In this document: in pieces, positions 31,688 to 64,000 of the stretch | How the letters are laid out: each line of letters opens with the position of its first letter | Numbering within the stretch: position 1 is the first letter of the stretch | Program-made: the position numbers and the translations under genes | Notes under the pieces: model-generated | The model's input: only the letters and a program-made list of their open reading frames with translations | Database searches by the model: none | What the model was told of the DNA's origin: nothing | NCBI RefSeq assembly: GCF_030265065.1 | Contig: NC_080410.1 | Coordinates: 29,890,661 to 29,954,660 of the forward strand | DNA length: 64,000 nucleotides | Direction of reading: 5' to 3' | DNA from: Corythoichthys intestinalis | Lineage: Eukaryota

Positions 31688-31718
<31 letters not shown>

Positions 31719-39086: not shown

Positions 39087-39249
39087 ATTTAGTACAAAAA
39101 AAAATTCTTAAAAACTGAGGGTTTAAAAAAAAAAAAAAAAAAAAAATCAGTCCAGTATCGAAATCGGTGCAACACTCATTTCTAAAAATCTAAGCCACTC
39201 CTAAAGAAGGATTTTGAATCCAGAAAGAAGAGCTGGGTGTCAAGCTCAC

Positions 39250-39411
39250 CGGTCCTGCTGTCAGGGGGCGGGGCCAGCAGCTCCCTCAAGTGAGCATCCT
39301 TCAAGTCGTCCACGCCGCTCAAATCCAACACACGCAAACATGGACACACTGTCTGACACAACGCGGAGACAGCGGGCCACGCAACGCCGGCCACCGTCAA
39401 CTCCACTAGGC
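39250..39411 (-). CDS. kdm2b: kdm2b-like LRR exon ([53 protein letters not shown])
   Basis: Acceptor tctttag, donor G|gtgagcttgac. Confidence 0.85.
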
Positions 39412-39532
39412 CTAAAGATCACAAACATAAACATGTTTTCACACAAATCCATGAACGGAGAGGAAGTTGTTGACAGAATGTGTGTGAAAGCAAGAAAAAG
39501 CAAAAGTTTCAGTCGATTGTGGCGTCGTGTAC

Positions 39533-39696
39533 CAGGCAATCGGCTGAGGAGCCAAAGCAGCTGTTTCTTGGAGATGTTGGTGTATCCGAGGTCCAGCGAG
39601 ACGGGTTGCCTGCGAATGATGCCGCTGAGCATGGGTGGCGTGATGGAGCGCTGGCGGCTCAGGTCGATCTGACTCCACAGACGCTTGTCGCAACAC
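39533..39696 (-). CDS. kdm2b: kdm2b-like LRR exon ([54 protein letters not shown])
   Basis: Acceptor gtcacag, donor G|gtacacgac. Near-identical to the human KDM2B segment. Confidence 0.9.
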
Positions 39697-39829
39697 CTGT
39701 GACACCACGGCAGGCAAAGGCCACACCTTAAGTTAGTTAATTGTGGAAATTCTCGACCCACGCGGTATTTTGATTTCGCGGGCCAAGCGAAGGCTGGCAA
39801 AAAGCGGCACCAGTGGCGGCGTGACTGAC

Positions 39830-40911
39830 CATCGGCTCCAGGTGCGACACACGCGCATGCACAGGCACAACTCTCGCTGGCTGAGGAAAGTGAAGACGCG
39901 CAGCCACACATCGCGCGGCATGACGTGAGCGCGGCCTGAGTCCAGCGGAAGGCAGCTGGGTTCGGGGCAGGCAGGTGGCGGCCTCACCAGGTGGCGCTCC
40001 ATCTGGACGGGACGGGGTGGCGACGGCACGGCTGGAGGGCTACGCTTCATTACGTGCGAGCGCCCTGCCGCGCCGAGGCGAGACGACTGCGAGCACGGTG
40101 ACGCCGCGGTCACCGATACTAGCGGGCCGCCGCCTCGCCCGCCGTTGGGGGTGGGGATAGAGGTGGAGCAGTTCCTTGGACGACTTTTGTTGCCTTTGGC
40201 CACGCCCGCTCCCACCCCGCCGTGTCTGTGATTGGTCGGCGGACCACTGGCGTTCTCCTTTTCACCCCGCGTGCGGCCGTTGCGAGCCTCCTGCCCGTTG
40301 TTGCGCTGCGAGGACGGAGCCATCTGATTGGATGAGAGAGGCGACGGCGGCGGGAGGGAGGAGATTTTCCCCAGTCTGTCCGAAGGGGGCGGCTCGTCCT
40401 GGTCGGCGTCCGATGCGCCAGCTTTCCTCCCACGCTGCACCAGGGATCCTCCAGCGTCACTGTCCCCTCGCCGACGGGCCTTATCCCGTTCCTCCTCCCG
40501 CTCCTCGTCCTCACCTTCCGACTCTTCACTTGCGCTGAAGCCCAACTCCGCCAGGCGGCGGTCCCGCTCGCTGCGGAACCTCTCCGGGCGGCTTCCATTG
40601 CCGTGGGCGATGGGAGGGGGTGGCGGCGGCGAAGAGGGCGAGGACGCCCCTCCCCTGCGAAGGGAGTCATCCGAGTCGGACTCAGAGTCTGACTCCGAGC
40701 TGGATGACGAGGACGAAGACGAGTCAGGCCTGCGTTCCAGGAGACACATCCTCTTGAAGCGTTCCAGTTTTTCCCGATGACGTGAACGCTGGTCGGCGCC
40801 AGAAGCTCCGCCACCATCGGCTGGCGGCGTTGACGAGGACGCGGAGCCCTGAGGAGCCCCTCCCGCCGAGGGAATGGGGCCATTGGACTCGGCTCCTTCT
40901 TGTTTGGGCTT
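39830..40911 (-). CDS. kdm2b: kdm2b-like large exon: Ser/acidic/Pro-rich linker plus F-box (…[30 protein letters not shown])
   Basis: Acceptor ttttttag. 1082-nt open frame. F-box matches KDM2[32 protein letters not shown]. Donor TG|gtcagtcac. Confidence 0.85.
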
Positions 40912-40978
40912 CTAAAAAATGACAGCCAGAGGCCCCGTCAGAACCGCAACGGAACAACGACGAAAATATTTCGGGTAC

Positions 40979-41011
40979 CTTTTTGAGGCGTCTTTCATGT
41001 GCAGCCTTCAT
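40979..41011 (-). CDS. kdm2b: kdm2b-like 33-nt micro-exon (MKAAHERRLKK)
   Basis: Acceptor tttctttcag, donor AAG|gtacccg. In phase with neighbours. Confidence 0.5.
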
Positions 41012-42722
41012 CTGAAAGAAAAAACACACTTTTATTTAAAAGGAGCAGAAGAAGAGACCGCGTGCTTTCAAATAAGAAAACTGATTTTTCATCTTTGAGC
41101 AATGGACCTATCCCAAAGCCCCACTCCCTTGTAAAACTCAAGACAACCCTAGGCCCAAATTCTCTCAGTGACAGTGACTGAGTGAATAAAAAAAATTTAA
41201 AGATGACAGCGAGAGTTCAAATTTCTGAATTTGCACTCTCATAGCTGGCAATATACCTTTTTTTTTTTTTTTTTTAAATGATTTTTTTAAAATTAATTTT
41301 ATTTAGAAGCAGACAAAGGGTTGCAGTATGTTACAGTTATTATACTGTAATTTTCCCACTAGAGGGCGCACCTGACAATAAGCCGCCACCCACCAAATTT
41401 GACAGGAAAACAAAATTTGTTCATAGATAAGCCGCAGCTGTCCTCACTGTATTATGGGATATTTACACCAAAGGATATTAACCGGTAACCCTTTATTTGA
41501 CTGTGGCATCATACGACTGTAATAATACTAAATGAACCACCATGAAGCTTTGAAACGATTGGCTACAAAGCTACAAAGCTACAAAGCTTCATTGCTTCAA
41601 GAAGCTTCATTTGGCCATCACTGCTCCTTTAGGAGACAGTCAACCTTTGCTGCCACTTGGTGTCAACACTGTTGTAGTCCAACATGCGTCCTAGCATGCA
41701 TTGCAGCGCTAAGATGTAAATAACAATCAAAATTCATGTTCTGTGCTAAATATTCCTTCAGTTACTGTTCCAGTTTCATTAATTGCTAGGTATGGTATTT
41801 GGTAACACTTTATTTGACAGTGGCGCCATAAGACTATCATTACACAATCATAATTATGACATGACACTGTCATGAACATTAATGAATGCTTATAACAGAT
41901 GTCACTTTTGAATGGATGTAAAAGATCCTAACTGGAAATAAATGGAGTTAGTGACATAGTTTGCCGGATGACACTCAATGACATCTGGCATAAGTATTCA
42001 GTAACCCCCATAATAATGTCATGTCCTATTTATGACGTCGCTGTCAAATAAAGTGTTACCTATTAACCCAAATAAATTAAAAAATAAGCAACACTGGAGT
42101 ATGAGTCGCAGGATTCAAACTGAAGGAAAAAAGTAGCGACTTATTGTCCCAATATTACGGTAATCGAGGTGAAATGCTACCACTGGCAACTTAAAAACCC
42201 ACAGGCCGAAAATCTATCTAGCTATAACGTTAGCTACTCAGTAACCTTATTAAAATACAGTACTAGTATTTTGTGTAATGTATTTATTTAAAACTGATTT
42301 TAAAACTGTAATGCGTCCATGAAAACATTTGATGTTTTCACCTCAATAACGCGTTATAAATAAGCGCTCCCGTCAGGGGAGAGCATTCACGCGGGGGGGG
42401 ATATTTTTCGGCTCAACACCGGCAGCGTAACCATTGGATGTCACCGCCCTACGACGTCAAACAACAATGGCGCCCTACAAGTTAAATTAATTTTACAAAT
42501 TGTATAAACACAAAAACATCAGGAGGAGTTTCAATCTCAAATTATTTTAACTCATAAACTCATCGTTTATCTTTTAAGAACTAAAAGTCTCTCTGTCCAT
42601 TGATCCCATTTAGTCACGACCACACAGTATTCCTATGCAACTCTACAGCTGGCGTTCGACTTTTGTGATATGGAGGCGTTGTTTTGCGACAGGTCCATTG
42701 AAGAAGTGGTGCACCACCTGAC

Positions 42723-42917
42723 CTTCTTTTTGGGGCCGCCGTCCTGTGGCTGCTCCTTCCTCCTCTTATGGGCACCGTCTGGCCTGGGCGCTACAGCCTC
42801 CTTCTTTGGAGGCGGTTCATCCGTCAGCTTCCAGCAACCCAGCTCCACGTTGTCTAGACGCCGCTTGGCCAAGATGTCTGCCTGCTCCTGCGGTCGCAGA
42901 GGGCAGCAAGTGGAGAA
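42723..42917 (-). CDS. kdm2b: kdm2b-like basic-region exon (FSTCCPLRPQEQADILAKRRLDNVELGCWKLTDEPPPKKEAVAPRPDGAHKRRKEQPQDGGPKKK)
   Basis: Acceptor ttgacag, donor AAG|gtcaggtgg. Phase-0 and consistent with flanking exons. Homology is weaker because the region is low-complexity. Confidence 0.6.
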
Positions 42918-44869: not shown

Positions 44870-46510
44870 TACGCATAAAGGTAAATAAATAAAAAATAAT
44901 AAAAATAAATGAAATATTCTAAATAAAATAAAATTGCCATGATAATTAGCCCCTTTATTAAATAAATAAAAAAATAACAAAAAATAAATGAAATATTCTA
45001 AATAGAACTAAATTGGCATGCTAATTAGCCCCTTTATATACCTCGTTAACAAGCTTACGTTTCAGTATGTTTTACCAATGCTAGACACACTACAGATGCT
45101 GGAGTAAATGCTCGTAGCTAGTAGGAAACGTTCATGACAGCGTTACTAATTTTGTATAAATGCGAAATCATATTGGGAGATATTGCCTTCTCTGTTAGCC
45201 ACCCCGTGCAAACATGTTTTACATGTTGGTTGGCCCACCTAAGCCGCGGCCTTAAAGAGAATTATAATACTAAGGGGCTGTGTGATATCAATGGAACAGT
45301 TATGTGGCAAGATAATAAAGTTAAAAAAAAAATAAATCACACTCATGACCAATTATCGAAAATAAATAGAAAATTACGAACATTTACGAATGTAGCCCGG
45401 AAACAGCCAAATGGGGCTATGACGTCACAGCCAGGAAGCAAAAGGTCGAGGCAGATGCCATTGTTGTTTATCGACGAGAGAGTTGCGTTCGTTTTTTATC
45501 AAAAAAATCGCTAAAATGGTTCCAACCTGTCGTGCTATGTGGTGTACAAATAGCAATTTGTCGCAATGTAGAACCCATGAGTTCCCGAATGCGAGAAAAA
45601 GAGCTGGACTAAGCAGACAAAAGGTAAAGTTCGTCCGTGCTAAGAGGGCCAATTTTGCAGACCCAGCCTCCGGCACGGTTTTGTGTGGTGTAAATTTTAC
45701 ACCTGAAAGCTTTTCGAACTATGGACAAATTAAATCAGGTTTTGCTAAGAAATTGCTGCTGAAAGCAGATGCGGTGCCCACCATACACGCGCAGCCACCT
45801 AAATGTTCTGAGATATCAAGAAAGAGGACGATGACTGGCACTGATGATACCACCCCAGGCAAAGCAAATGAGTTGAGCAGCCAAGCTCGAAATGGCCAGA
45901 GTGAGTACTCTTTTATAATAAAAAACATATCATGCATTGGCTATAGGACTGGACACATGTATAAATTATCGCTCGTAAAATATATACAACAAATCCTTTA
46001 ATCCCATTCATATTTGTGTCTGTTGGCAGAGCGAAAACCTATGATAGCACAATAAATGATAATTATTCTATATATTACTTTATTTTGCGGTCACGGTGTA
46101 TCAGCTTCACAAAAAGAAATGCAAAACAAACCATTCGGTGTTTCCCACACGATCTGTTGCCGGTGTTTCATCAGTGTGATTGCTCCCCTCAATGATCCTT
46201 TCATTAGGCTGCATTGGCTTTCGTTTGGGCTCAAATTGATAACCCAAAACACCAAAGAAAGGTTCATAACTTTCCTTGTCACTATTAGAAGAACGTTCAT
46301 TACGTCGGATTCGTCGCTGCAAATAGAAACAAAATTGTCCGCCATCATCGCTGCCATTCAGTACTTTGTCAGGACCCAAGCACTGAGCGGGTGTTTCCTA
46401 GTTGTGACGTCACGCACACAATATGCTAGATTTCGGGGATCTCGGGCACCGGTCGTTTTAGCTTGACAATCGATCCAAATTTCTACCATTTTCTTGGTGT
46501 GTGTAATTAC

Positions 46511-48305
46511 TAGCAGTGCAACGGTTTGCGGTTCAAAACCGAACCGTACGGTTCGCCCTGTACGGTTCAATACGCCTTTATGAACCGCGCCTTTTTGGTT
46601 TTACAATTACAGTAATCTATTCTGAACGCTTGTGAAATGAATTGGTCAAACTCTGTGTGCCTGTGTGTGACGTGAAGCGCAGCTGTGGAGAAATTCCCGC
46701 CCCGCGAGTAAATGTCCAATCGCTGTCAAGCACCTGTGTAATAGGAGCCGAGTAACGACCTCTCTCGCTTACGAGCGAGGTGAAAGTGAAACAAGAAAGA
46801 AAACAAAAAAAGTTATGGCGAGCGGAGGAGTCGACAGACCGATTTCTGAGGAGGCACCGGCTTCTTTCAAATCTGCGGTGTGGCAACATTTCAGTTTCCC
46901 CGTGGACTACAATGCAGACGGAGAGAAAACATTGAAAGAAAAAAAACAATTTGCAAGCATTGCTTAGCGCTTGTTCCCTATGCTAACGGCAACACTTCTA
47001 ACATGACTTGGGCACCTCAGCCGGCATCACCCACAGACATCGCTTTCTCAGAGCAGGACAACCCCGAAGATGACACCAGTGAAAACACACGGGTCTATAG
47101 AAGAGGCGTTCGAAAAGCCTTACAATATCAGGTCAGAAAAACACAAGAAAATAACCCACGCAGTGGGAATGTGCATTGCAAAAGACATGCAACCATATTC
47201 CGTGGTTGAAGATGCGGGCTTAGTTAATTTGATTGTAACGCTTGACCCGCGTTATATTGTTCCCTCGCGGATATATTTCGCCAACAACATAATCCCCGAC
47301 ATTTATGAAATGTCACGCAAAGCCATCGAAGGTGATTTCGCGAAAGCACATAGTTTCGCCCTGACCGCTGATAGTTGGACGTCCCGTGCTAGAGAGTGCT
47401 ACTACCTAACTGTGACGATCCACTATAATTCATACCTGTCAAGTTGTAAGGTCTCGGCGTTATTTGTACAAGTGAGCACTGATTTTTAAATGTGTACGCC
47501 GCAGGTTACGTTCAAAATCTGCACGTTTTTCGTGCATTGGCGTTTTTGTTGGGTTTTTTTTCATCCGTTTGGATTTGGTCACGCGTTTGGTTTGTAGCAA
47601 ACGCGATGCTAGGCGGCTCCAATATTTCCTGACTGTGGCCGACATCATACAATCTACGCCTAGATATCTCATGCATATAGAACTACATGCGAAATGACAC
47701 ACGGTAGCGTTAGTAAACAGCCGCCATTTTAGAGCAGTAAACTTCTCAGAAAGGCTCTGTTGTAGTGAACCTTCCGAGCGAACCTAAGCAACTTTTTATC
47801 TAAAATACTCCTAAATCGACAAAATCTTGACTTGAGTCTATCTTTAAAGGATGAAACAGTTTTGAAATTTTCACATTCGAAAGTAGACAGAAGGGAACTA
47901 AGGCAAAAACGGGAGCAATTTTATCAACTTTAACCGTTGATTCACAACATTAAATGACCTCCAAACATAGCAAAGGTTACTATGTTTTTGGGTTTGTTTG
48001 TTTTTTTTTAATGAAAAAAAAAAGAAAGGTATCACCAGTTACTTTGCCAAGTAACTTTTTTACTACTGTGTATTTCAGTAGTCAGTCACTACACTTGCCA
48101 AAGAGCTAAGAGGCATTTTAACAGTCGAAAATGTTTACATTTTAAGTGTTTATTTCATTTTTTTTAAAAGCAAAATAAAGGCAGTTTAAAAAAAAAAAAA
48201 GAAGAAAAGCAAAACGCAAAACGCAAACCGAACCCGAACCGAAACCGTGATCCCAAAACCGAGGTTCAAACCGAACCGTGGGCTAACTGAACCGTTGCAC
48301 CCCTA
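46511..48305. mobile_element. hAT element (TIR TAGCAGTGCAACGG...CCGTTGCACCCCTA) with 8-bp TSD GTAATTAC, nested in THAP-element copy 1
   Basis: TSD at 46503-46510 and 48306-48313. Copy 2 retains the unoccupied site gtgtGTAATTACacg at 52521-52532. Confidence 0.8.
46800..47490 (+). pseudogene. Decayed BED-zinc-finger / hAT transposase N-terminal region (SAVWQHF...CKHC...; ...DAGLVNLIVTLDPRYIVPSR...TADSWTSRA)
   Basis: BED-finger and hAT motifs split across two frames (ORFs 46880-47209 and 47070-47489) with a stop between them. Confidence 0.6.
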
Positions 48306-50300
48306 GTAATTACACAAAGTGGCATGATATGAATCCAAAAGGCATGCGTTTATGGATAAATGATGGAATATTAGCATTTCCCCAGGTGTTGTCATACCCT
48401 TTAACTTTCCTGTACCCAAAGTATTCCCATACCAGTGACTTCGTTTTCTTCGATGGGGGTAAAAGTTCAGGGGTTTCATGTCCTCCAGCCAACGTGCAGC
48501 ACAGCTGTCTCACTGACACTGAGCAACAACTTGAGGGGGGAGCCCTACATTTTTGGGACATAAAATACAGTCATACGTAGGGACGGTATGACTGAAAGTT
48601 TTAGCGGTTTTGAAACCTTGACGTTTTCATACCACGGTAGACCTTGAAACAAGTAACCGACACATGCCTACGTTTTACACCCTGAATCGACACAAAAACA
48701 GACCACAGGAGTGGAATCAGCCTAAAAGTAACACTTTCAAAAATTACTAAAACATGACTAAGGATAAAAAGTATTTAACTAAATCTCAACGGCCTGCCAA
48801 AAACAACACCAAATGTAACAGGACTTATTTTCTTTATTTAACATGAAAAATATACGCATCGTGAGCAGCTGCAGAGGCGGATGTCCTTTTTTTAACCAAC
48901 TCTAAAAAAATCCTCAACAAAAAGAGTTACTGAATATGACAGTGTTTGAAATTATATTTACTGCTGTTTTGTTTTGCTCTCCTATGGTATGCCTCCTTAT
49001 GAAGTCAAAAAAGTAATTAAATTTGAATTTATTGGAACTTCTTATTAGCAGTCGGTCGGCAGAGGAAATGAGAGTCGATGCGCTTTTCTATTTTTGAGTT
49101 GATCTCCTCTCTAAGAAATGCTGAATAAAATACAATGATGCCACTCATTCTTCATTTACTAGTCAGCAGCCACCCCAACACACACACTTAAAGCACCTTC
49201 CCCCCCGCTCTTGCAGATATTCCAAAACGACTACTTCACCGTTGACTTAACTCGAGTCAAAATTCCAAAACAGCTATTAGAGAGCACTCCATGATCAAAA
49301 CAGCTCCAATATAATGTGATTAGACATGTGCCGACTACCGGTTTCAAAGTATACCGTGGTATTAAAAAACGTCGCGGTTTCAAAAGAGCAAAAATTTTCC
49401 ATCATACTGCCCCTACAGGATTAGCTATTTTTTTATGTCCCAAAAATGCAGGGAGAAATCCCTCGCTTGCAGCTGCAAAGCTCAAACCTCCCCCACCTGT
49501 TGTTGCTCAGTGTCAATAAATCAGCTGTGCTACACGATGGCTGGAGGAGGTGAAACTCCTGAACTTTTTCTCCCCATCGAAGAAATCGTTTGGTTTGGTA
49601 AATACTTCGGCTACAGAAAAATTACAGACGGCCGCGGCTTGGAGGAGGAGGGCAAACCGACATGTACAACATGTTTGTGGAGGTTGGCTGCTGAGGAAGC
49701 AATCCATCCAATATTTACACAAAATTTACACAAAATGAAAGGCAAGTAAACATTATCATGAACGTTTCCCACCACCTACAAGAGTTAACTCCAGTGTGTT
49801 TAGTGTGTCTAGCGGTGGCAAAATGCGTTTCTCTCTGGCAACTGTGTTGAGAAAGAGTGTGTGTATCATGAAACATGATACGAGTCATACACATGTGCTT
49901 TTTATGGACAATAACTCAATTATTTTTGTTCTGATGTTAATAATGTGAGCCGTGGCTGTGGGTTTACACTCACTTAAAGCACTACATTTATTGTAATTTT
50001 ATTTAGAATATTTCAGTTATTTTTTACATTTATTTTAACATTATACTTATATTCCAAATTGCTAATATCGTTTGAAAAATAAAAATCCTGTTCAATGGAA
50101 ATAAGTTTTTTTAACCCAGATATCTCAAAGTAACACATTTTAGAGCTACCATAAGAGCTTGCGATACCGTGATACTGTGAAAGTTTTGCTTAAGGTTCAC
50201 ATACCGTCAGAATCTCACACCGGCACATGCCTAAATGTAATGATTATGGATTGAATGGATTTCTACACCGCTTTTATCTCTAAAATTCAGCAGGACTCAC

Positions 50301-50387
50301 CTTGCTGGTTTTTCCTTCCTTGTGACACTTGGGACACTCCCAGCAGTTGGGAATCTCGTCGTTGATGATGCCCTCCGCTTTGCCCAT
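50301..50387 (-). CDS. kdm2b: kdm2b-like exon ([29 protein letters not shown])
   Basis: Acceptor tctcgtag, donor AAG|gtgagtcc. Matches KDM2B ...[18 protein letters not shown]. Confidence 0.85.
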
Positions 50388-50468: not shown

Positions 50469-50612
50469 CTTGAGGCAGCGCGGGTGTATGATTTCGTTGC
50501 AGATGGTGCACTCCATCAGGCTCAGGCTGAACTTGTCCTCCTCGCCTTCCACAGTGTCCTCCTTTCCCGCCTCGCCGCACGCCAGGCACACCGCCGTGTG
50601 CGGCAGCACCGG
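50469..50612 (-). CDS. kdm2b: kdm2b-like PHD-finger exon ([48 protein letters not shown])
   Basis: Acceptor tgtgcag, donor AAG|gtgggg. Matches the KDM2B PHD region. Confidence 0.9.
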
Positions 50613-51078
50613 CTGCACACAGATGTCACAAGTCACAACACGACCCATGCCTAATTAGCTACAGCATACCACCATTTACAGTGTTCCACTGTTTTGATAC
50701 CCCCACGTCCATGTTTTTAAAACAAAATTTAATGGAAAAAAATAACACATTTGGACAGTCCTTTTCCTCTTTGGCCCAGAAGACACGAAAAAAAAATTCA
50801 AACATGGACTCATCAGACCACATTGCGCCCGCACTACATCAGCACAAGACATGGCATCCTCTCCATTGGCCTGAGATTATTTTTGTATGTTTTCATATCA
50901 GTTCTCAGCCTTAATTCATCAATTAATCGATCAGTTGCCCAAGATCCATGCACAGTGCATGTCTGTTTCTGGTTAACTGGTAATGCCAGTTGCCATGGAA
51001 ACACAGCATCGTTGCCTGCTGGCCTACAGCTTGCCTTGGATGCTATTTGAAGAATCCGTGTGTGGCTTTTGGTCTTAC

Positions 51079-51255
51079 CGCTGTGCACTGCCTGAGCAGG
51101 CAGGACTGCTTCATGCGCCCGGGCCCTCCGAACTTCTTCATATCCTTGCAGAAGTGACACTCGCCGCACTCGCTACGGGTGCACGCCTGGCAGCGGCGGC
51201 ACCGCGTCCTCCTGCGCCTCGCCCCCCCGCCCAGCGCCTTACTGCCCGACATCCC
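51079..51255 (-). CDS. kdm2b: kdm2b-like CxxC zinc-finger exon ([59 protein letters not shown]); in-frame ATG at 51250-51252
   Basis: Near-identity with the KDM2B CxxC domain. Acceptor cgttag, donor GCG|gtaagacc. Confidence 0.85.
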
Positions 51256-51297
51256 CTAACGAGTCAGCTGCAAAAACAACAAGAACAACAACATTAA

Positions 51298-52619
51298 AGG
51301 GTATTATAATACTAAGGGGCTGTGAGAGATCAATAGAACAGTTATGTGGCAAGATAACAAATATTAACAAAGTTAACAAAAAAATAAATAACGTTCATCA
51401 GCAATTATCAAAAATAGATTGAAAATTACGAACATTTCCAAAAGTATTCCGGAAACAGCCGAATGGGGGGGGGGGGGGGGGGGGGGACGTCACAACAAGG
51501 AAACAAAAGGTCGAGGCAGGTGCCATCGTTGTTTATCGACGAGAGAGTTGCGTTCGTGTTTTATCAAAAAATTGCTAAAATGCTTCAAACTTGTCATGCT
51601 AAGTGGCGTACAAATAGCCATTTGTCGCAATGTAGTACCCAAGAGTTCCCGAACGTGAGAAAAAGAGCTGGACTACGCAGACAATGAGTAAAGTTCGTCC
51701 ATGCTAAGAGGGCTAATTTTCCAGACCCAGCCAACAGCACGGTTTTGTGTGGTACGCATTTTATACCTGACAGCTATTCGAACTATGGACAAATGAAATC
51801 AGGTTTTGCTAAGAAATTGCTGCTGAAATCCCGAGATATCCCTGATATCCTGAGATATCAAGAAAGAGGACGATGACTGGCTCTGATGAGACCACCCCAG
51901 GCAAAGCAAAGGAGGGAAATGACCAGAGTGAGTACTTTTATAATAAAAAACATATCACGCATTGGATATAGGACTGGATACATGTATAAATTATCGCTCG
52001 TAAAATATATACAACAAATCCTCTAATCCCATTCATAAATGTGTCTGTTGGCAGAGCGAAAACCTATGATAGCACGATAAATGATAATTATTCTATACAT
52101 TACTTTATTTTGCGGTCACGGTGTATCAGCTTCACAAAAAGAAATGCAAAACAAACCTTTCGGTGTTTCCCACACGACCTCTTGCCGGTGTTTCATCAGT
52201 ATAATTGCTCCCCTCAGTGATCGTTTCATTAGGCTGCATTGGCTTTCGTTTGGGCTCAAATTGATAACTCAAAACACAAAAGAAAGGTTCATAACTCTCC
52301 TTGTCACCATTAGAAGAACGTTCGTTACGCCAGATTCGTCGCTGCAACTAGAAACAAAATTGTCCACCATCATCGCCGCCATTCAGTACTAAGCACTGAG
52401 CTGATTGTTTGCTTGCTGTGACATCACGCACACAATATGCTAGATTTCCGGGATCTCGGGCGCCGGTCGTTTTAGCTTGACAATCGATCCAAATTTCTAT
52501 CATTTTCTTGGTGTTGCGATGTGTGTAATTACACGAAGTGGCATGATATGAATCCAAAAGGCATGCGTTGATGGATAAATGATGGAATATTAGCATTTCC
52601 CCAGGTGTTGTAATACCCT
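51298..52619 (+). mobile_element. TTAA-flanked THAP-carrying element, copy 2 (1322 bp, no nested insertion), 45 bp upstream of the kdm2b CxxC exon
   Basis: Same termini and internal sequence as copy 1. TTAA at 51294-51297 and 52620-52623. THAP-like ORF 51463-51687 is degenerate. A 23-nt G-run lies at 51464-51487. Confidence 0.7.
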
Positions 52620-53249
52620 TTAAGGTGACATATTTCACCTTTCCAGTCTTAGGTTTAACTCTTTACACAGCATTGACGATGATTGACATCAAATCATGTG
52701 ACTTCATCTTATGCTTTCAATTTAAATTTGCCACTAACAGACGTCAAATCCATTTGAACTGGGAAGGGTGGCCGCGAATGCCATCAAATCGATGGATCAA
52801 CATCTTCATGATATGCCATTTTGTGAAAAAGAATGCTTTTCATTCAAATGTTGAAAATATTTCAGCGACAAAAAAACGTCAAAAACATCGATAGCGTATT
52901 TCATTGTTTAGGCAAATATAACTCTTTGTATTGAATGTGTTATAAAACTGTTTTTTCCCCCATCAATTAATTCATTGATTGCACATTGACAGTGGTAGAT
53001 GTTAGATCCATTTGGATTGAATGGACTGCCATCTCCTCCCAATCCAAATAATTGGACGTCTATCGTCGTCAGTGTCACTTAATCATTTGCTACCACTGCC
53101 TGACTCGTATTTCAAAATAATTTGACGTCAAAGGCTGTGAAATGGTTCAAATAGCCTGTCGACACCACTGTTCCATGATGGGGGTGTCCTAGAAATATTA
53201 GCATTGAACTCTTCTGCTTGATGCTTTCGACTTGCGGTCATCGGGTCAC

Positions 53250-53900
53250 GTGATAAGTGGACATCACAAAGCATGCCGCTAGCAGAGGTCGCAAGCATCA
53301 AGAAGGCACCACTCGAACGACGCCAACAGCTAACACACGCACGCGCGCACACACCCCCACACCAAGCACCTCTGGAACATGAAAAGGGGAACATATGCTA
53401 ACATGCTAATGATGCTATCCCATAGCATCACTCCGGCTGCTCCCTGGAGATTGATAGGCGTCGCGCGCACACGCGCATGCAGGCAGGCAGGCGCGCGTCC
53501 GCCCGTTGTTGTCACCCACCTCTGGCTTTCAGCTCGCATGCTCGTGGCTCGCACATTAGCAACAATATTAGCCAGCCAGCTCTTAGCCACGTTAGCTCGT
53601 CGTCCGTCAGCTTCCTTGTTTGGAGCCGGAGAGCCTCCGCCGCCTCACGCGCACCCCATGCCGCCGTTAGCCTCCAGCTAGCTCCCGGCTAGCCCTGCGC
53701 AGCCGACGTGTTATCGATAAGCCAGCTAATCGATATCGACGAGGCGAGAGGCGCAGTGCCGATGCTGCTGCTACTAGTGCTGTGAGGCAAGCCCATTAAC
53801 CCTCATCCTCTCTCTCTCCTGTCCCTCCTCCTCATCCTCTCTCTCTACCTCCGCACGTGCCTGCTAGTAATAGTATCACTCCGCGCGTGGAAGTAGTCCC
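53250..53900. promoter_or_regulatory. CpG-rich island between the kdm2b CxxC exon and ube2m; candidate internal or bidirectional promoter
   Basis: High CpG density and GC boxes with no recognisable coding exon. A minus-strand GT donor follows an ATG at ~53590-53520. Confidence 0.35.
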
Positions 53901-54233
53901 ACCACTGCCGCACATGTTGTACTAGTCCTCAAAAAATTACTATATTGTGATATAGTTCATTATTTTCTGTAATGTACTGATAAACATTAGACTTTCATAT
54001 ATTTTAGATTCATTACACACAACTACACTCGACTGAAATAGTTCAAGCCTTTTATTGTTTTAATATTAATGATTTTGGCAAAAAAGTCATGAAAAACCAA
54101 AAATCCCAATCTCAAAAAATTTGCATATCATGAAAAATTCTAAAGAAGCTGCTAACCTAATCATCTGAAACAACGAATTACCTCAAAATAAAGATTCCTG
54201 AGGCTTTTAAAAACTCCCAGCCTGGTTCATTAC

Positions 54234-55228
54234 CAGTGTTGGGCACGTTAGTTTAAAAAAGTAATTAGTTACATTACTCACTACTTCTTCCAAAAAGTAA
54301 CTGAGTTAGTAACTGAATTACTCTATAGTAAAAGTAACTAGTTACCAGGGAAAGTAACTATTTCCGTTACTTTAAAAAGAACTTTTTGTATGTCAAAGAA
54401 TTTGAAATTTTCTGAGCAGTATTCGAGTCAGTGGAATAGAGAAGAACAGACAGGTAGTTAACTTGTTAGGTGCTTCAGCAGATTTGAATTGCTTACAACA
54501 GATGTCGACAAAAGCTTTGCCACGGGACATAAATTACACATTACATGCAGGTTCTTTCCTTTAATTTCGACAAACTTGAAATAGTGTCTATATCTCCACC
54601 TCTTAAAGGACAATTTTTCTTCTGAATGCTCTGCCATCCCGACCCTGTGCTTCTGTTTTGCGTGTGTGTGTTTGCCGCACGCGCTGTTCCGGTTTGCTTG
54701 TGAAATCACCGGCTCTGATTGGCTTACCACGACACCTCAGCCAATCACAATCAGTTCCATTGCATCTCTCGAGGGGCTGCATTCAGGTAGGCTCGTTTTC
54801 CGACAATTCACGTCACCTTCAAAGCGTCTGCCGTCCTCAAGATGGAAGCAGAATTATTGCTGGCTGACAGTGGGAGATGGGAACGAGGCTAGCATCAGGT
54901 GTAGCAAACACAGAAACGTTACCAAACTTTGGAAAGCATTGTCTAATTGAATGAGCAGGGACAAACAGCTTGGAGTCAGAAGTACGTGCGCTGTTCTCGA
55001 ACCTGAACGCACCCCAAGTTTTGGATGACAAATCAAGAGCAGAGTCGACTCGACACGGCTGGTAGTTTCTTCAATTTATTCAGAGTAAGTAACGCACCGC
55101 TTTTGACCGTCAGTAACGGTAACGGCGTTGTAACGGCGGAAAAAGTAATTAGTTAGATTACCCCGTTACTGAAAAAATAACGCCGTTACGTAATGGCGTT
55201 ATTTATAACGGCATTACTCCCAACACTG
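54234..55228. mobile_element. hAT-type MITE (TIR CAGTGTTGGG...CCCAACACTG, subterminal GTAAC(T/G)/GTTAC repeats) nested in the Tc1-like element, 8-bp TSD TTCATTAC
   Basis: Perfect 8-bp direct duplication at 54226-54233 and 55229-55236. Confidence 0.7.
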
Positions 55229-55250
55229 TTCATTACTCAAAACCGCAATC

Positions 55251-56027
55251 ATGGGCAAGACTGCTGACTTGAGTGCTGTCCAGAAGGTCATCATTGACAC
55301 CCTCAAGCAAGAGGCTAAGACACAGAAAGAAATTTCTGAGCGAATGGTCTGTTCCCAGAGTGCTGTATCAAGGCACCTCAACGGGAAGTCTGTGGGAAGG
55401 AAAAAGTGTGGCAGGAAACGCTGCAGAACCAGAAGAGGTGACCTCACCCTGAGAAAGATTGTGGAGAAGTGCCGATCCCAGACCTTGGGGGACCTGCAGA
55501 AACAGTGGACTGAGTCTGGAGTAGAAACATCCAGAGCCGCCGTGCACAGGTGTGTGCTGGAGCCACTTTTGAACCTGAAACAGCGGCAGAAGCGCCTGAC
55601 CTGGGCTACAGAGAAGCAGCACTGGACTGTTGCTCAGTCGTCCAAAATACTTTTTTCAGATGAAAGCAAATTTTGCGTGTCATTCGGAAATCAAGGTGCC
55701 AGAATTTGGAAGAAGACTGGTGAGAAGGAAATGCCGAAATGCCTGAAGTCCAGTGTCAAGTACTCAAATTCAGTGATGGTCTGGGGTGCCATATCAGCTG
55801 CTGGTGTTGGTCTACTGTGTTTTTTCAAGGGCAGGGTCAATGCAGCTAGCTATCAGATTTTGGAACACTTCATGCTTCCATCTGCTGAAAAGCTTTATGG
55901 AGATGAAGATTTCATTTTTCAGCACGGCCTGGCTCACAGTGTCAAAACCACTGGTAAATGGTTTACTGACCATGGCATTACTGTGCTCAAGTGTCCCGCC
56001 AACTCTCCTGACCTGAACCCCATAGAG
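55251..56027 (+). pseudogene. Tc1-like transposase remnant (MGKTADLSAVQKVIIDTLKQ...ANSPDLNPIEH), disrupted by MITE insertion at 56028
   Basis: Transposase homology. The reading frame runs into the inserted MITE. It resumes as NLGTKY* after the TSD. Confidence 0.6.
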
Positions 56028-56255
56028 CACAGGTGTCAAACCGATTCCAGAAAGGGCCGAGTGGGTGCTGGATTTTGTTCCAACCGATACAACGCAGAGA
56101 GTTTAATGAACTTCCTGCTGAAACAAGCAGCACCTGACAAAGTTTAACTGATTACACATGTAAAAGATCTAATTGGTGAAAAGGTGTCCTCTTCATTGGT
56201 TGGAAAGCAAACCTGCACCCACTTGGCCCTTTCTGGAATCGGTTTGACACCTGTG
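56028..56255. mobile_element. Palindromic MITE (CACAGGTGTCAAACCGATTCCAGAAAGGGCC...), 8-bp TSD CCATAGAG, inserted in the transposase ORF
   Basis: TSD at 56020-56027 and 56256-56263. A divergent family member is at ~6035-6262. Confidence 0.7.
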
Positions 56256-56778
56256 CCATAGAGAATCTGGGGACCAAGTATTGAGTGCATAGCTGATATA
56301 ATTAATCGAAGGTTGACATTTTTTTTGTATTGGTCGGATGAAATATGCTAATTTTTTTTTAGCTAGGGATTTTTGTTTTTTCTTGACTTTTTTGCCCAAA
56401 TCATCAATATAGCAACAATAAAAGGCTTGAACTACTTCAGTTGTGTTTAATGAATCTAAAATATGAAAGTCGAATGATTATCAGTACATTACAGAAAATA
56501 ATTAACTTTATCACAATATGCAATTTTTTTGAGAAGGACGAGTATGTTCTGTTTTTTAAAATGTTATTTATTAGGTTGTGTGCTCTGTTCGCATCAAGGA
56601 TGCGTGCGTTAATGACGTCACGCAGGTGACTGTGGGCAAAATTTAAAAAATGCTTGAAAATGGGCCAGAGAGCGCAGGCGTAGATGCGCATCAGGACCCT
56701 TGGCACAGCCCATATATGCCAAAAAGTGTATTTCTTCTGGGTTCCATTTTTGGCCATTTTGCTTCCCCTTTTTGGGGG

Positions 56779-56816
<38 letters not shown>

Positions 56817-57559
56817 CATTTTTGGGCCCGGGAGCGCCAGGAAACGTACAAATACGCATCAGGACTCCTGACACAGCCAGTGGCGCCTCCAGAAATTTTT
56901 CATAGGGGTGGCCTGATGGGGCCACTTAAAATCTTGGGGTGGCCAAAACTAAAAGCCATAATTTCAGGTTTTCATTATATTATTGCAGTAAAAAGGTCAG
57001 GGGAAAACTATCAGAAAGACTTAAGGACACGGCTACTGATATACTTTGGTGTATTGTGAAATATTTGATGTTACTAATGATTTAATGTGCATAGTCCATA
57101 ACTGTCCAGTCAACATTTTGAGTTCCACAACAATTCTGTTTTATTGTGTTATGTATATATTAGGCATAAGGTGTACATTTAAGTTAACAAAACAAAATAA
57201 ATGCATTCATTTGGGATGAAATGCATAACTGATGCTGCAACAATCTAATGATATACTGGCAAGCGGGGTGGCCAGTGGGGTGGCCAACCAATTTATAGGG
57301 GTGGCCGTGGCCACCCCTGGCCACCCCCTAGTGGCGCCATTGGACACAGCCCGAATTTCCCAAAACTGTGTACTTTACGATAAGACGTGACGAGCGTGAC
57401 GTATGAAAAGAAAAGGAATTGTGGGACTTGAAGTTTTCTTCTGAATGAAAAGATTCACTCCTTAAATTCAGGTAATTTCATTTGATGAAATGACCCCTGT
57501 GTGCCAAAATATTTCAATTTAAATCCAAAGTATTTTTAGGGGAATCACCCTTCTCTCTC

Positions 57560-57776
57560 GGTTCTCTCTCCCTGTCTAACAGTTAGCATGTAGCTAGTGA
57601 GTTAACATGCTAGGCTACGTTAGGCTAGCGGCGTGTCATTAGTTGACGTACGCCGGCGGCTCCTCCAGCAACATTTGGGTGCTGTGTCGGACGGAACACA
57701 CTCCCTAGCGAGCGAGGCAGCGACGCGGACTCGGCGAACACGGAGACGGCGTGCGCGTCTCATCCCGCCAGTGAAC
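57560..57776 (+). promoter_or_regulatory. ube2m: CpG-rich putative ube2m promoter/5'UTR
   Basis: CpG-dense block immediately upstream of the ube2m ATG. Confidence 0.45.
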
Positions 57777-57891
57777 ATGATTAAGCTCTTTTCCCTCAAG
57801 CAGCAGAAGAAAGACGAGGAATCTGCTGGAGGAAACAGAACCGGAGCCGGCGGAAAAAAAGCCAGCGCGGCCCAGCTGCGGATACAAAAAG
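57777..57891 (+). CDS. ube2m: ube2m exon 1 ([38 protein letters not shown] + G)
   Basis: ATG at 57777. The peptide equals the UBE2M/UBC12 N-terminus. Donor G|gttcgcc. Confidence 0.85.
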
Positions 57892-60800
57892 GTTCGCCCC
57901 TAACACTCAAAAACGTGTGGAAATATATGTCTAAATGTGCGTGTATGCGTACGTGTATGTCTGTAATTGACCAAACGCGCAAGGGAGAGCTCGTCAGTGC
58001 ACACAAGCCAAGAATAGATTCAGTTAGCAGTTAGCCAAACAGGCTAACTTGGAACGAGCCGACTCCGCCAAGATTGCTGCACTTGTGTGTTCATTCTACA
58101 CAAACACATAATATACACGCAACATGCCAACTCCGACATATTTGACGACTGCTTAGCAGCTAACAGCTCTCACTAGTGTGCTCTTTGCGTTAAACTGCTA
58201 GACAGCTCGAATTCACATGTGTTAGCATCCTGACGTCATGAGACCCGCAGGTGAGCAGGCCACACCTGGCAGGTTTTATGCGGCATTCGAGGAAGGTGGG
58301 AAATCTGAGTTATCCCACTTGGATAATACCAGTTTCGACCTTAAAGATGAAGTTAAGAATTTTTGACATCAGGCGTAATTTTTTAATTAGCCGGATTTTA
58401 ATTAGTCGGTAGAGTTGATTTCAACAAATTTCATGCAGTTAGTTAGTTATTTATTAGTTTTAGTGCTCCGGAATGGCTAAGCTGGCACAAATCAATCGCC
58501 AATAAAAAAACAACATATGCACTAGTGGTGTGCCAATACATCGATTATTAGATTCATCGAGATTCATCACGCGACGATTCGATTACGATTCATAAATAAT
58601 TTTATAAACGATGGTTTTCCCTAATAACTTAATGACAGCCGCTGCTAGCCGAACACAATTCAAGACACGTCTGCTCCCTGGACACCTTAAGGCAGTGTTT
58701 TTCAACCAGTGTGCCATGAGAGATCATCAGGCGTGCCGCGACAAATCATCCAATATCACTTTTTTTTTTTTAACATCGTTGGGCTGAGTTACAGACTGCA
58801 GTTGGAAGGAAGGAGTAGGAGAAGGTTGCGGTCGTGTGCAGATGAGCAAGGTATTGCTCGTGTCGCATTCAAAAATTGCTTGGATTTCTAGCCATCAGCC
58901 ATCTTGCTGTCAATGTGGACCCCAGCACGTCTACTGTACATAATTTGATTAGAATCGTCAAGTGTTGATATACTCGGAAATTTATTTTCCATTGTATCCA
59001 TATACAAGGACCATCAATCCCCCCCGTGTTTTAATCCAACACATTGTCGAGGACAGCAAGGCGGCTGATGGCTAGAAATCCGAGCAGTTCTTGAACGCGA
59101 CACGAGCAGCTACCAACAGCGCCATGGTGCCAAAGTTCATTTTTAAAAAAAACAAAACACCCATCGCTTCAAAACAGTTGATGGACTATTTTGTTCGCCT
59201 TTGTAAAAACGGAGAAACGGGCAACTTTTTTTCTTTACCTTTTTGCTGAACTTGTTGCGAAATCCAAAAAGTCCCACACTGCGGCAGAGACATTAATATT
59301 ACCTGCCTGCAAAGCCATTGTCAGCGACATGGTTGGCCCTGATGCGGTCAAAACATTGCTAAAGTCCCCTTGTCTGATAATTCTGAACTTTTCAAGCCTA
59401 ACTGCTATAAATAAAAATAAAAACGGAGAGCGACTGAGAGCTTTTGAAGATTGATGCCAGCATATTGGGTTTGTGTTCATCCAAACAGGCTCAAGTTTTG
59501 CACTGAGTAAGTACAAATATTGAGAAATTATTTTATGATTAAATATATTGTGCAGACAGTAATTTTGGAACATTTTTGGTTTGTGGTGTGCCACAAGCTT
59601 TTTTCAAATGTAAAAACATACCGTAATGCAGAACAGGTTGAAAAACACTGCCTTAAGAGATGCACAAGGTGAGGATGGCGGCAGCTGAAGTTACTGAGTG
59701 AGAGATTTACTCCTGTACAAAAGATTCAAAAATACATTTGTGTATGAGACAGGCAAGCGGTGGTCGCGCTTTAGGTCCTCTTCTGTGCGCAAGTTATTTT
59801 TTAGAGCAAGAGGGGAAGAGAGAGAGTTCACTGCTCCTTGCCTTTCAGTTGTCCAGCAGTAGTTTCAAGTCATGTTAATTGAAACAATGTTGTGAGTAGG
59901 CATGTGCCGGTATGAGATTTTGACGGTACGATAACCGTGAGCAAAAATACTGCGGTTTCACAGTATCACGGTATTGCAATTATAGCTCCAAAATTTTGAG
60001 ATGTATGGGTAAAAAAAAAAACTTTTTTCAATTGAACAGGATTTTTTTTTTTTCCAGAACATAGTTGCAAATTGGAACATGAATATATTGTTAATTGTTA
60101 ATTATCAATAAAAAAACCCAGATATTTTAATTAAAATATAACTTATAGACTATACCCACAGCCACAGCTCAAGTTGCTCAAGATTAGAGCAAGAGCAAAA
60201 TAATTTGTAGAAAAAAATAAAAACACTTCTGAATAATTTTTTTTTTAATTGAGGGTGGAAAAGCTCAAGTGAAGTTTTGCCAATTTCAGCCATTGTGTCA
60301 AATCTAGTCTACATGATGTCATGCCTTTGTGTTAAAAAGAACATAAAGAATTCATAAATTAATAAGTTAGTTAAAAATGTACAAGTTAGTTAAAATGTAA
60401 ATATTGTTGTGGAAAGGTTTCATCTGAAAAAAAAAAAAAAACATTGGAAGTGAGACCTCTCCTTGCGCTAACGAACGTGGATTTGTGCTTAGGGCAAGAT
60501 CATCTTTTGCAATTAACGATCTTTGATGCTATCCTTTTTTCCCCCTTCATTCAAGCGAATCAAGCTTGTTTTTTCACTCTGCGGCTGTAACACTCGACGA
60601 AGTTGCTCTCCCAGCTAAGCTTAGGCTAACATTCATCTTTGTAAGCTTTTAGTTAGTTTTCGAATTTGAAAGGAAAATGTGTGTTTTGTTTTTGGCGAAC
60701 TTTTCCATGGTGCTAATCTGTTGAAGCTACTCACACATGGAAAAATACAATTGTACAACATTTTAAATGTATTCATTTTGTATATTACCCTTACCACGAT

Positions 60801-62912
60801 TTGAGAGCTCAATAAATTGAAGAAAAGAACGCCTTATGTTTGGAGTATTTGTTTTTGTGTTCGCTGGCTGGCTAGCCGATAGCATCACTTTCACACACAG
60901 AAACAAACGGTAGGGGGTGAGCGCTGCCGCGCCATGCCACTTCTGGCTGCATTTTTGAGACATGAAAAATGGCGAATACCGTACTACGGTCTGACGGAAA
61001 ATTTTAGTGGTTTTGAAACCGCGACGTTTTCACACCACGGTAAACCGTGAAACCGGTAACCGGCACATGCCTAGTCCTGAGTGTGTTGTTAAGTCCCGTG
61101 TGCGTCTATTAGAGGTGAGTACACGAACCCTCTTGTACTGTTTAGCCTTTATTGTTGTTGTTTTTGAGATGTTAACAGTTAGTGCTAAGCTAAATAGGGA
61201 ATTCGCTAACGTGTATTTCCATGTCTATTTGTGCGTTATTAGTGTACAAAAGCATACTAAATAATACATATGCAGAACATGTAAAACCAGGATCAAGTAC
61301 AGCGGTAACACTACAAACATGCGAAATAATACAGAAATCTGTGAAAACAAAGTATATTGGTTAAAAGAAGTCTTATTTCTAAAGGCACTTTGGTTTTTTT
61401 CCAGAAAATGTGGAATTCATTCCACCACTGTAAATTTTATTGTATTGTTGGGAGAAATAAGTACTCCCTTTGAAACAGCTGCGCCTTCTTGTGAAAAAGA
61501 GCAGCTTAAGTTCAGCTTTTTGTTGTATAGGCATGTTTCCATTGTTCCTGCTGGATCATTAGTATGAAGTAGCCACAAAGTAAGAGAAAAGAGGTAGGGG
61601 CGTAAAGAAATCCTGATCATTGTTAATACCGTGAAGATAATTCAATAATCATTCAAGTTCAATAATCGAATCGTAGTACCCTGAATCGTAATTTAGTCCA
61701 ATCGTGGGGTGCCTTAGATGGCACACCCCTAATATGCACGCATGAAAATCACCGATGACCCATGCAATCAATAGTGTTGGCTATATTTTCAGGATGAAGT
61801 TATTAAAACTTACCATTGCATGTCAATAACTGTAGTATGAACAGCAACATTTGTAATCCAGCTGCTCTGTAGGCAACATGCTGCAGAGTGGATAATTTTT
61901 CCACCGGTGTGTTTATATCGTGGCCAGCAGCAAGTATCCAAAGTTTGTATTGTTCCTCGTTCTTCATAGGGAATTTGTGGAAACTCTCATTTGCCCATTT
62001 CTTCTGTCTGTTTCCACAGCCTCTAAATGCATGTTTCACTATGTTGCCGTTCTTCATTCAAGACTCCTTAGACTGATGCTGCATTCGAGGAAGGTGGGGA
62101 GTCCGAGTTTCCAACCTCCGACCAGAAAAAAATAACATTGGAACGCCACTCGAACTGGGAGGCACTAGTCGCCAAGTCAGGAAAAAAAAACAAAAACAAG
62201 TTGCTTCAATCAGACGTCACTCAATAAAATGCGGTGCCCGTCGAAAAGCAGACCGTCAATAGAAAAACTAAAGAAGGCAGTATACAATGTGGTCTATTTA
62301 GAGTTTTCCTCCAGTATTTGATCACTTATGAGAAGGCAGGTTTGCTGGAGGTCAACATGTCTTTTGATGTCCAAAATAAAAAACGATTGGAACACTTTGA
62401 GGTCACAACTGGTACCATCCGAGTGGGATAAGTCCAACTACCCATCTTCCTCGAATGCAGCATGAGCACAAGTTGCCGTAGCACTCCTCTCTATGGGGGT
62501 CTCATTACGCATCTAAAAAATAGTCTCGCAGAAATAAATGAATTACGGCAATTTGGTGTGACATTGTTTTTGGCTGTATGTGTATTTTGAACAAACGATG
62601 TGCATTTTGAATTTTTTTGACTATATTCGATCTGTTAATATCATTTTATTGGGATGCTAGGAAGGGACCATTCACTCACGCCGGGTACCCCCCCCGACTT
62701 TGCGACTAGGACCTCCAAATTCGAGTGGCATTCCAATGATATTTTTTCTAGTTGGAGGTTGGAAAACTCCCGACTTCCCACCTTCCTTAAATGCAGCATT
62801 CGAGTCCAAATGAAATAACGTCCTGTGTTGAAAACCCCCGAAACAACCGATGATGGCATGCGAGTTTCAGACAACGAAATCTAAAGGGTTTATTTGGGAT
62901 TGTATGTTTCAG

Positions 62913-63007
62913 ACATCAATGAGTTGAACCTGCCAAAGACATGTGAGATCAACTTCCCTGACGACGACGACCTCCTCAACTTCAGACTCATCATCTCGCC
63001 TGATGAG
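62913..63007 (+). CDS. ube2m: ube2m exon 2 ([32 protein letters not shown])
   Basis: Acceptor tgtttcag, donor GAG|gtgcgtgc. Matches UBE2M residues ~37-68. Confidence 0.85.
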
Positions 63008-63144
63008 GTGCGTGCATTTATATTTGCGTGAGTCACAAGTAAGGTTGCCGTAAATGATTACTTTAATAGGTGACTAATCAGAAGGATTAGCGATCACATA
63101 GCAAGAAGTAGGATGTTGAGCTCACTTACTACATATTACGAATA

Positions 63145-63589
63145 GGGTTGTTCCGATCATGTTTTTTTTTTGCATCGATCGTTTTAGTTTGAGTATCTGC
63201 CGATCCCGATATTTCCCGATCCGATTGCTTTTTTTTTTTTTTGCTCCCGATTCAATTCCAATCATTCCCGATAATTTTTCCCGATCATATACATTTTGGC
63301 AATGCATTAAGAAAAAAATGAATAAAACTCGGACGAATATATACATTCAGCATACAGTACATAAGTACTGTATTTGTTTATTATGACAATAAATCCTCAA
63401 GATGGCATTTACATTATTAACATTCTTTCTGTGAGAGGGATCCACAGATCGAAAGATTTGTGATTTTGTATATTGTGACTAAATATTGTAGTGTATTTGT
63501 TGAGCTTTCGGTAAATGATACTGCAGCCATTCAACCCAAATGCATGATGGGAAGTGGAACCATGACTGTGCGTTGTGCTACCAATTGAT
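63145..63589. repeat. Same repeat family, copy B, truncated by a Tc1 insertion at 63590
   Basis: Aligns with 4354-4830. Confidence 0.6.
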
Positions 63590-64000
63590 ACAGTGCCTTG
63601 CAAAAGTATTCGGCCCCCTTGAACCTTGCAACCTTTCGCCACATTTCAGGCTTCAAACATAAAGATATAAAATTTTAATTTTTTGTCAAGAATCAACAAC
63701 AAGTGGGACACAATCGTGAAGTGGAACAAAATTTATTGGATAATTTAAACTTTTTAAAATAAAAAACTGAAAAGTGAGGCGTGCAATCTTATTCGGCCCC
63801 CTTGCGTTAATACTTTGTAGCGCCACCTTTTGCTCCAATTACAGCTGCAAGTCGCTTGGGGTATGTTTCTATCAGTTTTGCACATCGAGAGACTGACATT
63901 CTTGCCCATTCTTCCTTGCAAAACAGCTCGAGCTCAGTGAGGCTGGATGGAGAGTGTTTGTGAACAGCAGTCTTCAGCTCTTTCCACAGATTCTCGATTG
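63590..64000 (+). mobile_element. 5' part of a second copy of the same Tc1-like family (continues past window end)
   Basis: Identical left-TIR sequence preceded by a TA. Confidence 0.85.

Follow-up and report, generated by a model that had tools for sequence, protein, structure and literature searches.

A CxxC-encoding exon beside a decayed transposon in Corythoichthys intestinalis is best explained as the first coding exon of fbxl19

A minus-strand exon of Corythoichthys intestinalis encodes a zf-CxxC domain, carries an in-frame ATG near its 5' end, and lies next to the end of a transposable element (TE). This arrangement raises the question of whether the exon opens a JmjC-less isoform of kdm2b, started from an internal promoter or from the TE itself, or whether it belongs to a gene of another kind. 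Mammalian KDM2A and KDM2B are known to make short forms from intronic promoters (PMC7000146), and FBXL19, the KDM2 paralogue lacking JmjC (PMC5997449), resembles these promoter-derived short forms, KDM2A/B-SF (PMC7000146). We analyzed a stretch of 64,000 nucleotides of contig NC_080410.1, here called the window, to whose positions all unlabeled coordinates refer. The best explanation overall is that the flagged exon represents exon 2, the first coding exon, of teleost fbxl19, a reading that we hold at a probability of about 0.93.

Identity of the gene and its neighborhood

Peptides joined from the window exons matched the Pfam families zf-CXXC (E = 4.7e-15), PHD_4 (E = 2.8e-27), F-box-like (E = 4.8e-10), and LRR_4 (E = 2.8e-08), which is the zf-CxxC/PHD plus F-box/LRR architecture of FBXL19. 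The same set of domains without a demethylase domain is found in KDM2B-SF (the FBXL10 short isoform), whose transcript likewise comes from a promoter rich in CpG, a short way upstream of the exon that encodes the CxxC domain. KDM2B-SF, however, is an isoform of a gene with upstream JmjC exons, whereas the window gene is without them, its promoter appears to be the canonical one, and its sequence groups with FBXL19.

When the CxxC-PHD peptide was compared with all of PDB, FBXL19 (6asb) scored 197 bits, KDM2B (4o64) 184 bits, and KDM2A 130 bits; in these PDB scores FBXL19 thus leads KDM2B by only 13 bits, a modest margin, and identity of the region to KDM2B is about 80%. The top named matches of this peptide in a search of 5.8 billion proteins were F-box/LRR-repeat protein 19 of several animals, sharks, gar, and turtle among them. 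At every diagnostic position of the alignment, the window protein has the FBXL19 state. It carries SCLLRQCTA and, in exon 4, the FBXL19-type MGKAEG, whereas fish kdm2b proteins (Caranx P0005 and Goodea P0008) are marked by SCIMRQCIA, KFNLMLMECSIC, and VKDSNG. In the database search, the F-box/LRR half was 75 to 83% identical to teleost zgc:158376/FBXL19-like proteins and 61% identical to mammalian FBXL19, compared with 55 to 56% for KDM2B of fish and mammals (48% for one fish Kdm2ba) and about 50% for KDM2A. Raw likeness of this half to human KDM2B (5jh5) is also strong, at 307 bits, and by itself could have suggested kdm2b; with the same query, however, teleost and mammalian FBXL19 outranked all KDM2B proteins in the database. 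In neither half were KDM2B orthologues the closest relatives, FBXL19 ranking above them in both, and the best matches in both halves were of the zebrafish zgc:158376 type of FBXL19. The end of the window protein, LLKSS followed by the stop codon, is similar to the human FBXL19 C-terminus, LLKDS. The assignment to fbxl19 rests on match ranking and diagnostic residues rather than on a formal phylogeny. The name kdm2b, under which the gene had been described in the earlier note, was wrong by all of these measures: PDB ranking, named matches, diagnostic residues, and F-box/LRR identities.

The absence of detectable JmjC exons points in the same direction. A tblastn search of the 64 kb with KDM2A residues 1 to 612, a query identical to PDB chain 7uv9_K, returned only the CxxC segment at 51171-51079 (E = 8.6e-13), all else having E values above 3. 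Minus-strand ORFs of at least 30 amino acids in 51300-64000, joined with X spacers, gave no Pfam family, although this approach has low power for short exons and missed even a Tc1 transposase fragment. Upstream of exon 1 lie a Tc1-like element and then the divergent gene ube2m (Ubc12). The coding part of ube2m exon 1 was located at 57777 to 57890 on the plus strand by tblastn, its window-encoded peptide matching PDB 4p5o with E = 1.4e-29, and the next exon at about 62909-63007 on the same strand, also by tblastn. Standing head-to-head with fbxl19, ube2m bounds the fbxl19 upstream region, since only about 3.9 kb separate its start from exon 1 as mapped. JmjC exons past the window edge (above 64000) are conceivable in a formal sense, but only on the far side of where ube2m starts. 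We detected no upstream exons of the same gene, and hence no alternative first exon set inside an intron of a longer JmjC-coding unit, as in KDM2B-SF. The human FBXL19 and UBE2M sequences used as tblastn queries served for exon location only; to check identities, the peptides that the window encodes were compared with PDB, Pfam, and the protein database.

Taken as kdm2b, the exon would supply the ATG of a JmjC-less short isoform made from an internal promoter, as in mammalian KDM2B-SF. This reading draws on the known intronic promoters of mammalian KDM2A and KDM2B (PMC7000146), on the roughly 80% CxxC-PHD identity, and on the 307-bit F-box/LRR score. Against it stand the higher rank of FBXL19 in every comparison, the missing JmjC exons together with a start of ube2m on the other strand 3.9 kb upstream, and an N-terminus that fits the predicted start of FBXL19 orthologues. 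We consider it barely credible.

The gene order in the window is kpnb1 (minus), encoding importin beta-1 and located downstream of fbxl19, then fbxl19 (minus) and ube2m (plus). The neighbors kpnb1 and ube2m differ from what we take to be the neighborhoods of both human FBXL19 and human KDM2B. A CpG-rich block of its own accompanies ube2m (57501-58000; GC 0.52, observed/expected [o/e] CpG ratio 1.13). At 9914-10057 on the minus strand, inside kpnb1 and presumably intronic, the window contains a match to the H/ACA snoRNA SNORA79 over the full-length model (65 bits, the gathering score being 55).

First exons, promoter, and start codon of fbxl19

Exon 2 occupies 51079 to 51267 on the minus strand, as delimited by a spliced cDNA of a related fish, by its splice sites, and by the zf-CXXC match. 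The cDNA, L001, is a 1,109-nt Logan RNA-seq contig (SRR30947829) that carries the closest protein match, P0001 (95% identity); at the nucleotide level it is only about 83% identical in coding exons and 61% in the 5'UTR. Its nucleotides 352 to 554 align to 51269-51079, nucleotides 554 to 705 to exon 3, and nucleotides 688 to 786 to exon 4, and later parts fall at 42.9 kb and 41 kb. Exon 2 comprises 15 nt of 5'UTR (CTGACTCGTTAGGGG) and 58 codons including the zf-CxxC domain, and it ends at 51079 with the donor GCG/gtaaga (slashes mark exon or element boundaries). The minus strand in this region reads ...ccctttaatgttgttgttcttgttgtttttgcagCTGACTCGTTAGGGGATGTCGGGCAGTAAG...CAGTGCACAGCGgtaaga. Position 51043, from which the exon had been counted earlier, only marks where the read-through ORF stops.

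The 3' end of intron 1, a polypyrimidine tract followed by a CAG acceptor at 51270-51268, spans 51268 to 51293 on the minus strand, and homology to a Cirrhinus mrigala locus (L002) begins within it, at 51290. Because both the L001 cDNA and Cirrhinus place the acceptor at this CAG (ttgtttttgCAG), exon 2 would start at 51267 and not at 51255. The junction reads ttgtttttgCAG/CTGACTCGTTAGGGGATG in the window and GAAGAG/CTGACTTGTTCGGGGATG in the L001 cDNA; the entry into exon 2 in Cirrhinus is ttcag/TTGAATGCAGAGGGGATG, also written ttcag/TTGAATGCAGAGGGGATGTCTGGCAGTAAG, again 15 nt before the ATG. The earlier description of an ATG directly after the acceptor was right about the exon and about the ATG (51252-51250), but the acceptor that it placed at 51255 gives way to the upstream site, and 15 nt of the exon precede the ATG. 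The "ag" then taken for the acceptor is part of an in-frame TAG in the 5'UTR (51256 to 51258, minus strand), where the related cDNA reads TTCGGGG; since an AG is missing from this cDNA at the corresponding place, the tag/GGG site is not the conserved acceptor. Minor use of this site (at 51257-51256) as an acceptor beside the main CAG, from which it lies 12 nt downstream, would shorten the 5'UTR and leave the protein unchanged. The AG does exist there in this species, and both sites lie upstream of the ATG; however, the polypyrimidine tract is followed first by the AG of the CAG at 51270-51268, the upstream site is the one spliced in the related cDNA, and the Cirrhinus acceptor is also 15 nt from the ATG. 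We regard such secondary usage as unlikely, though less so than the other alternatives considered here.

The start codon of fbxl19 is predicted at 51250 to 51252 on the minus strand, in the context TAGGGGATGT, with the in-frame TAG 3 nt upstream. FBXL19 predictions from gar (P0006) and a Logan teleost (P0001) start at the same methionine with MSGSKALGG, as do those from turtle (MSSSK) and pangolin (MSSSS). Comparison with these orthologues argues that the ATG at 51252 is no chance feature but the canonical start codon of fbxl19, kept in other species. Together with the non-coding exon 1, the TAG and the orthologue starts indicate a protein of FBXL19 type that begins just before the CxxC domain and is free of JmjC. 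Nothing essential distinguishes the window gene from FBXL19, with which it has the start methionine in common in gar, another teleost, and turtle; its particular features are the non-coding exon 1, the in-frame TAG before the ATG, and a lineage-specific transposon in intron 1. The human FBXL19 reference protein is longer by some 20 residues at its N-terminus.

Exon 1 is non-coding and was mapped to 53520 to 53846 on the minus strand by alignment of the L001 5'UTR, its 5' end being approximate and possibly lying further upstream. Local blastn placed nucleotides 1 to 356 of L001 at 53844-53517, minus strand, with E = 1.9e-16 and an identity of 61% across 373 nt. The exon ends with ...GAAAGCCAGAG/GTGGGT, the donor AG/GTGGGT being located at 53519-53518, and the breakpoints of L001 coincide exactly with this GT donor and with the CAG acceptor of exon 2. 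The end of exon 1 is conserved in Cirrhinus at about 4190-4229 of L002 (...GAGTATGCGACTCCACACGAGCAG/GTGAGT, also written ...CAAGGAGTATGCGACTCCACACGAGCAG/GTGAGT), where it was found by direct reading, blastn being swamped there by (GA)n/(TC)n low-complexity matches. The layout of exon 1 followed by exon 2 is hence common to the window and two other fish (L001 and L002), from which we infer that the same transcription start and splice sites are used in this species.

A CpG-rich block at 53250 to 53900 extends over exon 1 and roughly the first 270 nt of intron 1. This block, reported earlier, was confirmed (GC 0.59, CpG o/e 0.95, 51 CpGs); it ranks in the top 4% of 650-bp windows, while o/e alone is non-discriminating, being already 0.85 across the whole window. 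Because the L001 5'UTR maps to 53846-53520 and ends at an AG/GT donor inside the block, the block is, on this comparative evidence, the canonical fbxl19 promoter region with exon 1, and no internal kdm2b promoter. The proposal that it drives a JmjC-less product accordingly keeps its core, in that the related cDNA starts in the block, splices to the CxxC exon, and encodes a JmjC-less protein, and loses its frame of kdm2b, JmjC skipping, and an internal promoter. Transcripts that start in 51260-53900 and splice into 51255 had been proposed as a check: the related-fish cDNA does start in that range, but its junction is at 51267.

A Tc1-like element occupies 54024-56449, with 96-nt inverted terminal repeats that are 85% complementary and a 298-aa DDE_3 transposase ORF at 55251-56147 (plus). 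It lies upstream of exon 1, only some 180 bp away from the 5' end as mapped, and the core promoter is squeezed between this TE and exon 1.

In all three fish, a 7-codon upstream ORF (uORF) spans the junction of fbxl19 exons 1 and 2. It encodes MRAESQS in the window (53539-53520 plus 51267-51264, minus strand, ATG at 53539), MRPDTKS in L001 (334-357), and MRLHTSS in Cirrhinus (L002, about 4210-4229 plus 8572-8575), each followed by a stop that is always TGA at exon 2 nucleotides 2 to 4, 11 nt before the main ATG. The conserved CTGA or TTGA at the start of exon 2 would be explained by this stop codon, and the uORF may be a conserved translational control element for fbxl19.

Downstream, exon 3 (50469 to 50612, minus) encodes the first part of the PHD domain, up to ...IIHPRCLK, and is defined by cDNA alignment, canonical splice sites, and the PHD_4 match; exon 4 (50301 to 50387, minus), which includes MGKAEG, is defined by cDNA alignment and canonical splice sites. 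The remaining exons span 31054 to 42889 on the minus strand. Approximate positions from tblastn and cDNA are 42889-42706, 41013-40726, 40005-39805 (F-box), 39719-39531, 39412-39185, and 37598-37389, and the F-box-like and LRR matches fall in these downstream exons. The last exon, likewise from tblastn and cDNA, ends with ...DDRTLLKSS and a stop codon at 31056-31054.

According to this model, transcription would start at about 53846 or above, within the CpG-rich promoter, and exon 1 (to 53520) would be spliced to the CAG acceptor at 51270-51268 over an intron of 2,252 nt. The ribosome would then begin just past the in-frame TAG, 15 nt into exon 2, with the conserved ATG (51252). The TE in intron 1, antisense and 30 nt upstream of exon 2, would simply be spliced out.

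The TTAA-flanked transposon in intron 1

Two copies of the element lie in fbxl19 introns in plus orientation. Copy 2, in intron 1, extends from 51294 to 52623 including TTAA (element proper 51298-52619), as delimited by local blastn to copy 1 and reading of the ends; its TTAA sites are at 51294-51297 and 52620-52623, and its terminal inverted repeat begins exactly at 51298. Copy 1, in intron 4, extends from 45252 to 48404 including TTAA (element proper 45256-48400), as delimited by blastn, end reading, and the Pfam THAP match. The copies are 85% identical over 1273 nt (local blastn), and both read TTAA/AGGGTATTA ... TAATACCCT/TTAA, with imperfect terminal inverted repeats and unrelated flanks beyond. 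In having TTAA at both ends and inverted repeats, both copies correspond to a TTAA-specific DNA transposon with terminal inverted repeats (TIRs), of which non-autonomous piggyBac-type elements are an example, although with two copies only, TTAA as target duplication and TTAA as part of the repeat are indistinguishable. The window element differs from the piggyBac type in its ends, AGGG...CCCT, canonical piggyBac ends being CCC...GGG, and in having no recognizable transposase ORF.

Copy 1 resembles THAP-domain-bearing elements, as a THAP zinc-finger ORF is recognizable at 45483-46001 on the plus strand (26.9 bits for PF05485, whose cut-off is 23.9); it is the only ORF recognized in the TTAA element. 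The hAT-like ORFs belong to a nested hAT-like insertion in copy 1 at about 46501-48305, which is flanked by an 8-bp duplication (GTAATTAC) and contains BED-like and hAT-like ORF fragments. In copy 2, the THAP region gave no Pfam match, a zinc-binding Cys being changed to Arg and a premature stop being present, and this relic lies on the plus strand, antisense to fbxl19. Judged by its sequence, copy 2 is an old, decayed, non-autonomous DNA transposon. The earlier note, which spoke of a THAP-carrying TE end 45 bp upstream of the exon, had placed the end at 51298 exactly, but its distance from the true start of exon 2 is 30 nt and the THAP domain of this copy has decayed.

The comparison with an orthologous locus free of the TE, which had been proposed earlier, was informative. 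The window becomes homologous to Cirrhinus again at 51290, directly beside the TTAA; the Cirrhinus locus has no TE-related sequence, and it has the same ATG and exon layout. Because the layout is the same there without the TE, the exon and ATG architecture is older than the TE insertion and independent of it.

Could the end of the THAP-relic TE (51298 onward) nevertheless act as an additional, lineage-specific antisense start, giving an alternative fbxl19 5'UTR and the same protein? The TE end is only 30 nt from exon 2, and transposon ends can carry promoter activity. However, the THAP ORF on the plus strand runs away from exon 2, such that any promoter of the element itself would face in the wrong direction; both copies show age and decay (85% identity), Cirrhinus shares the exon and its ATG while lacking the TE, the 5'UTR of the related cDNA is free of TE sequence, and the gene has a canonical CpG-rich promoter. 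We see no sign that the TE acts as a promoter, and we consider a start of this kind highly improbable. A broader form of the idea holds that the TE, about 27 to 30 nt from the exon 2 acceptor, has been co-opted either for the branch-point region, for which CTTTAAT, spanning the TE end and TTAA, is a candidate, or as a cryptic antisense start, which would yield a lineage-specific 5'UTR isoform bypassing the junction uORF. This, too, appears very doubtful.

Other repeats were also found. Copy 2 contains a run of about 23 G on the plus strand (C on the minus strand) at approximately 51470-51493, which is missing at the matching place in copy 1. Downstream of the nested insertion, 48310-49750 holds more BED-like ORFs and an inverted repeat pair (48455-48539/49490-49574), making intron 4 of fbxl19 a pile-up of TEs. 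Young repeats with 95 to 98% identity (43237-43652/44649-44871/63588-64000 and 4447-4673/63234-63465) sit in fbxl19 intron 4, in a ube2m intron, and near the 3' end of kpnb1.

Relation to KDM2 short forms and the corrected gene model

The N-terminus of shark FBXL19-like proteins (P0002/P0003, MALSPEDEEQES...) resembles that of the Caranx kdm2b-like protein P0005 (MAMSLSADDEDYDSDSEQ...) upstream of the CxxC exon, the stretch in question being short. This likeness hints that the first exon of FBXL19 and the first exon of the KDM2B short form may share ancestry. A further, speculative idea is that the promoter and first exon of FBXL19 might be homologous to the internal promoter of the KDM2B short form.

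The value of this analysis is mainly corrective. What seemed to be a TE-driven, JmjC-less isoform of kdm2b most probably reflects the normal structure of fbxl19, an ordinary gene structure, and an fbxl19 without a demethylase domain is known biology. Its useful product is a corrected gene model for C. intestinalis fbxl19, with a predicted non-coding exon 1 at about 53846-53520, an exon 2 that would begin at 51267, and a predicted start codon at 51252.
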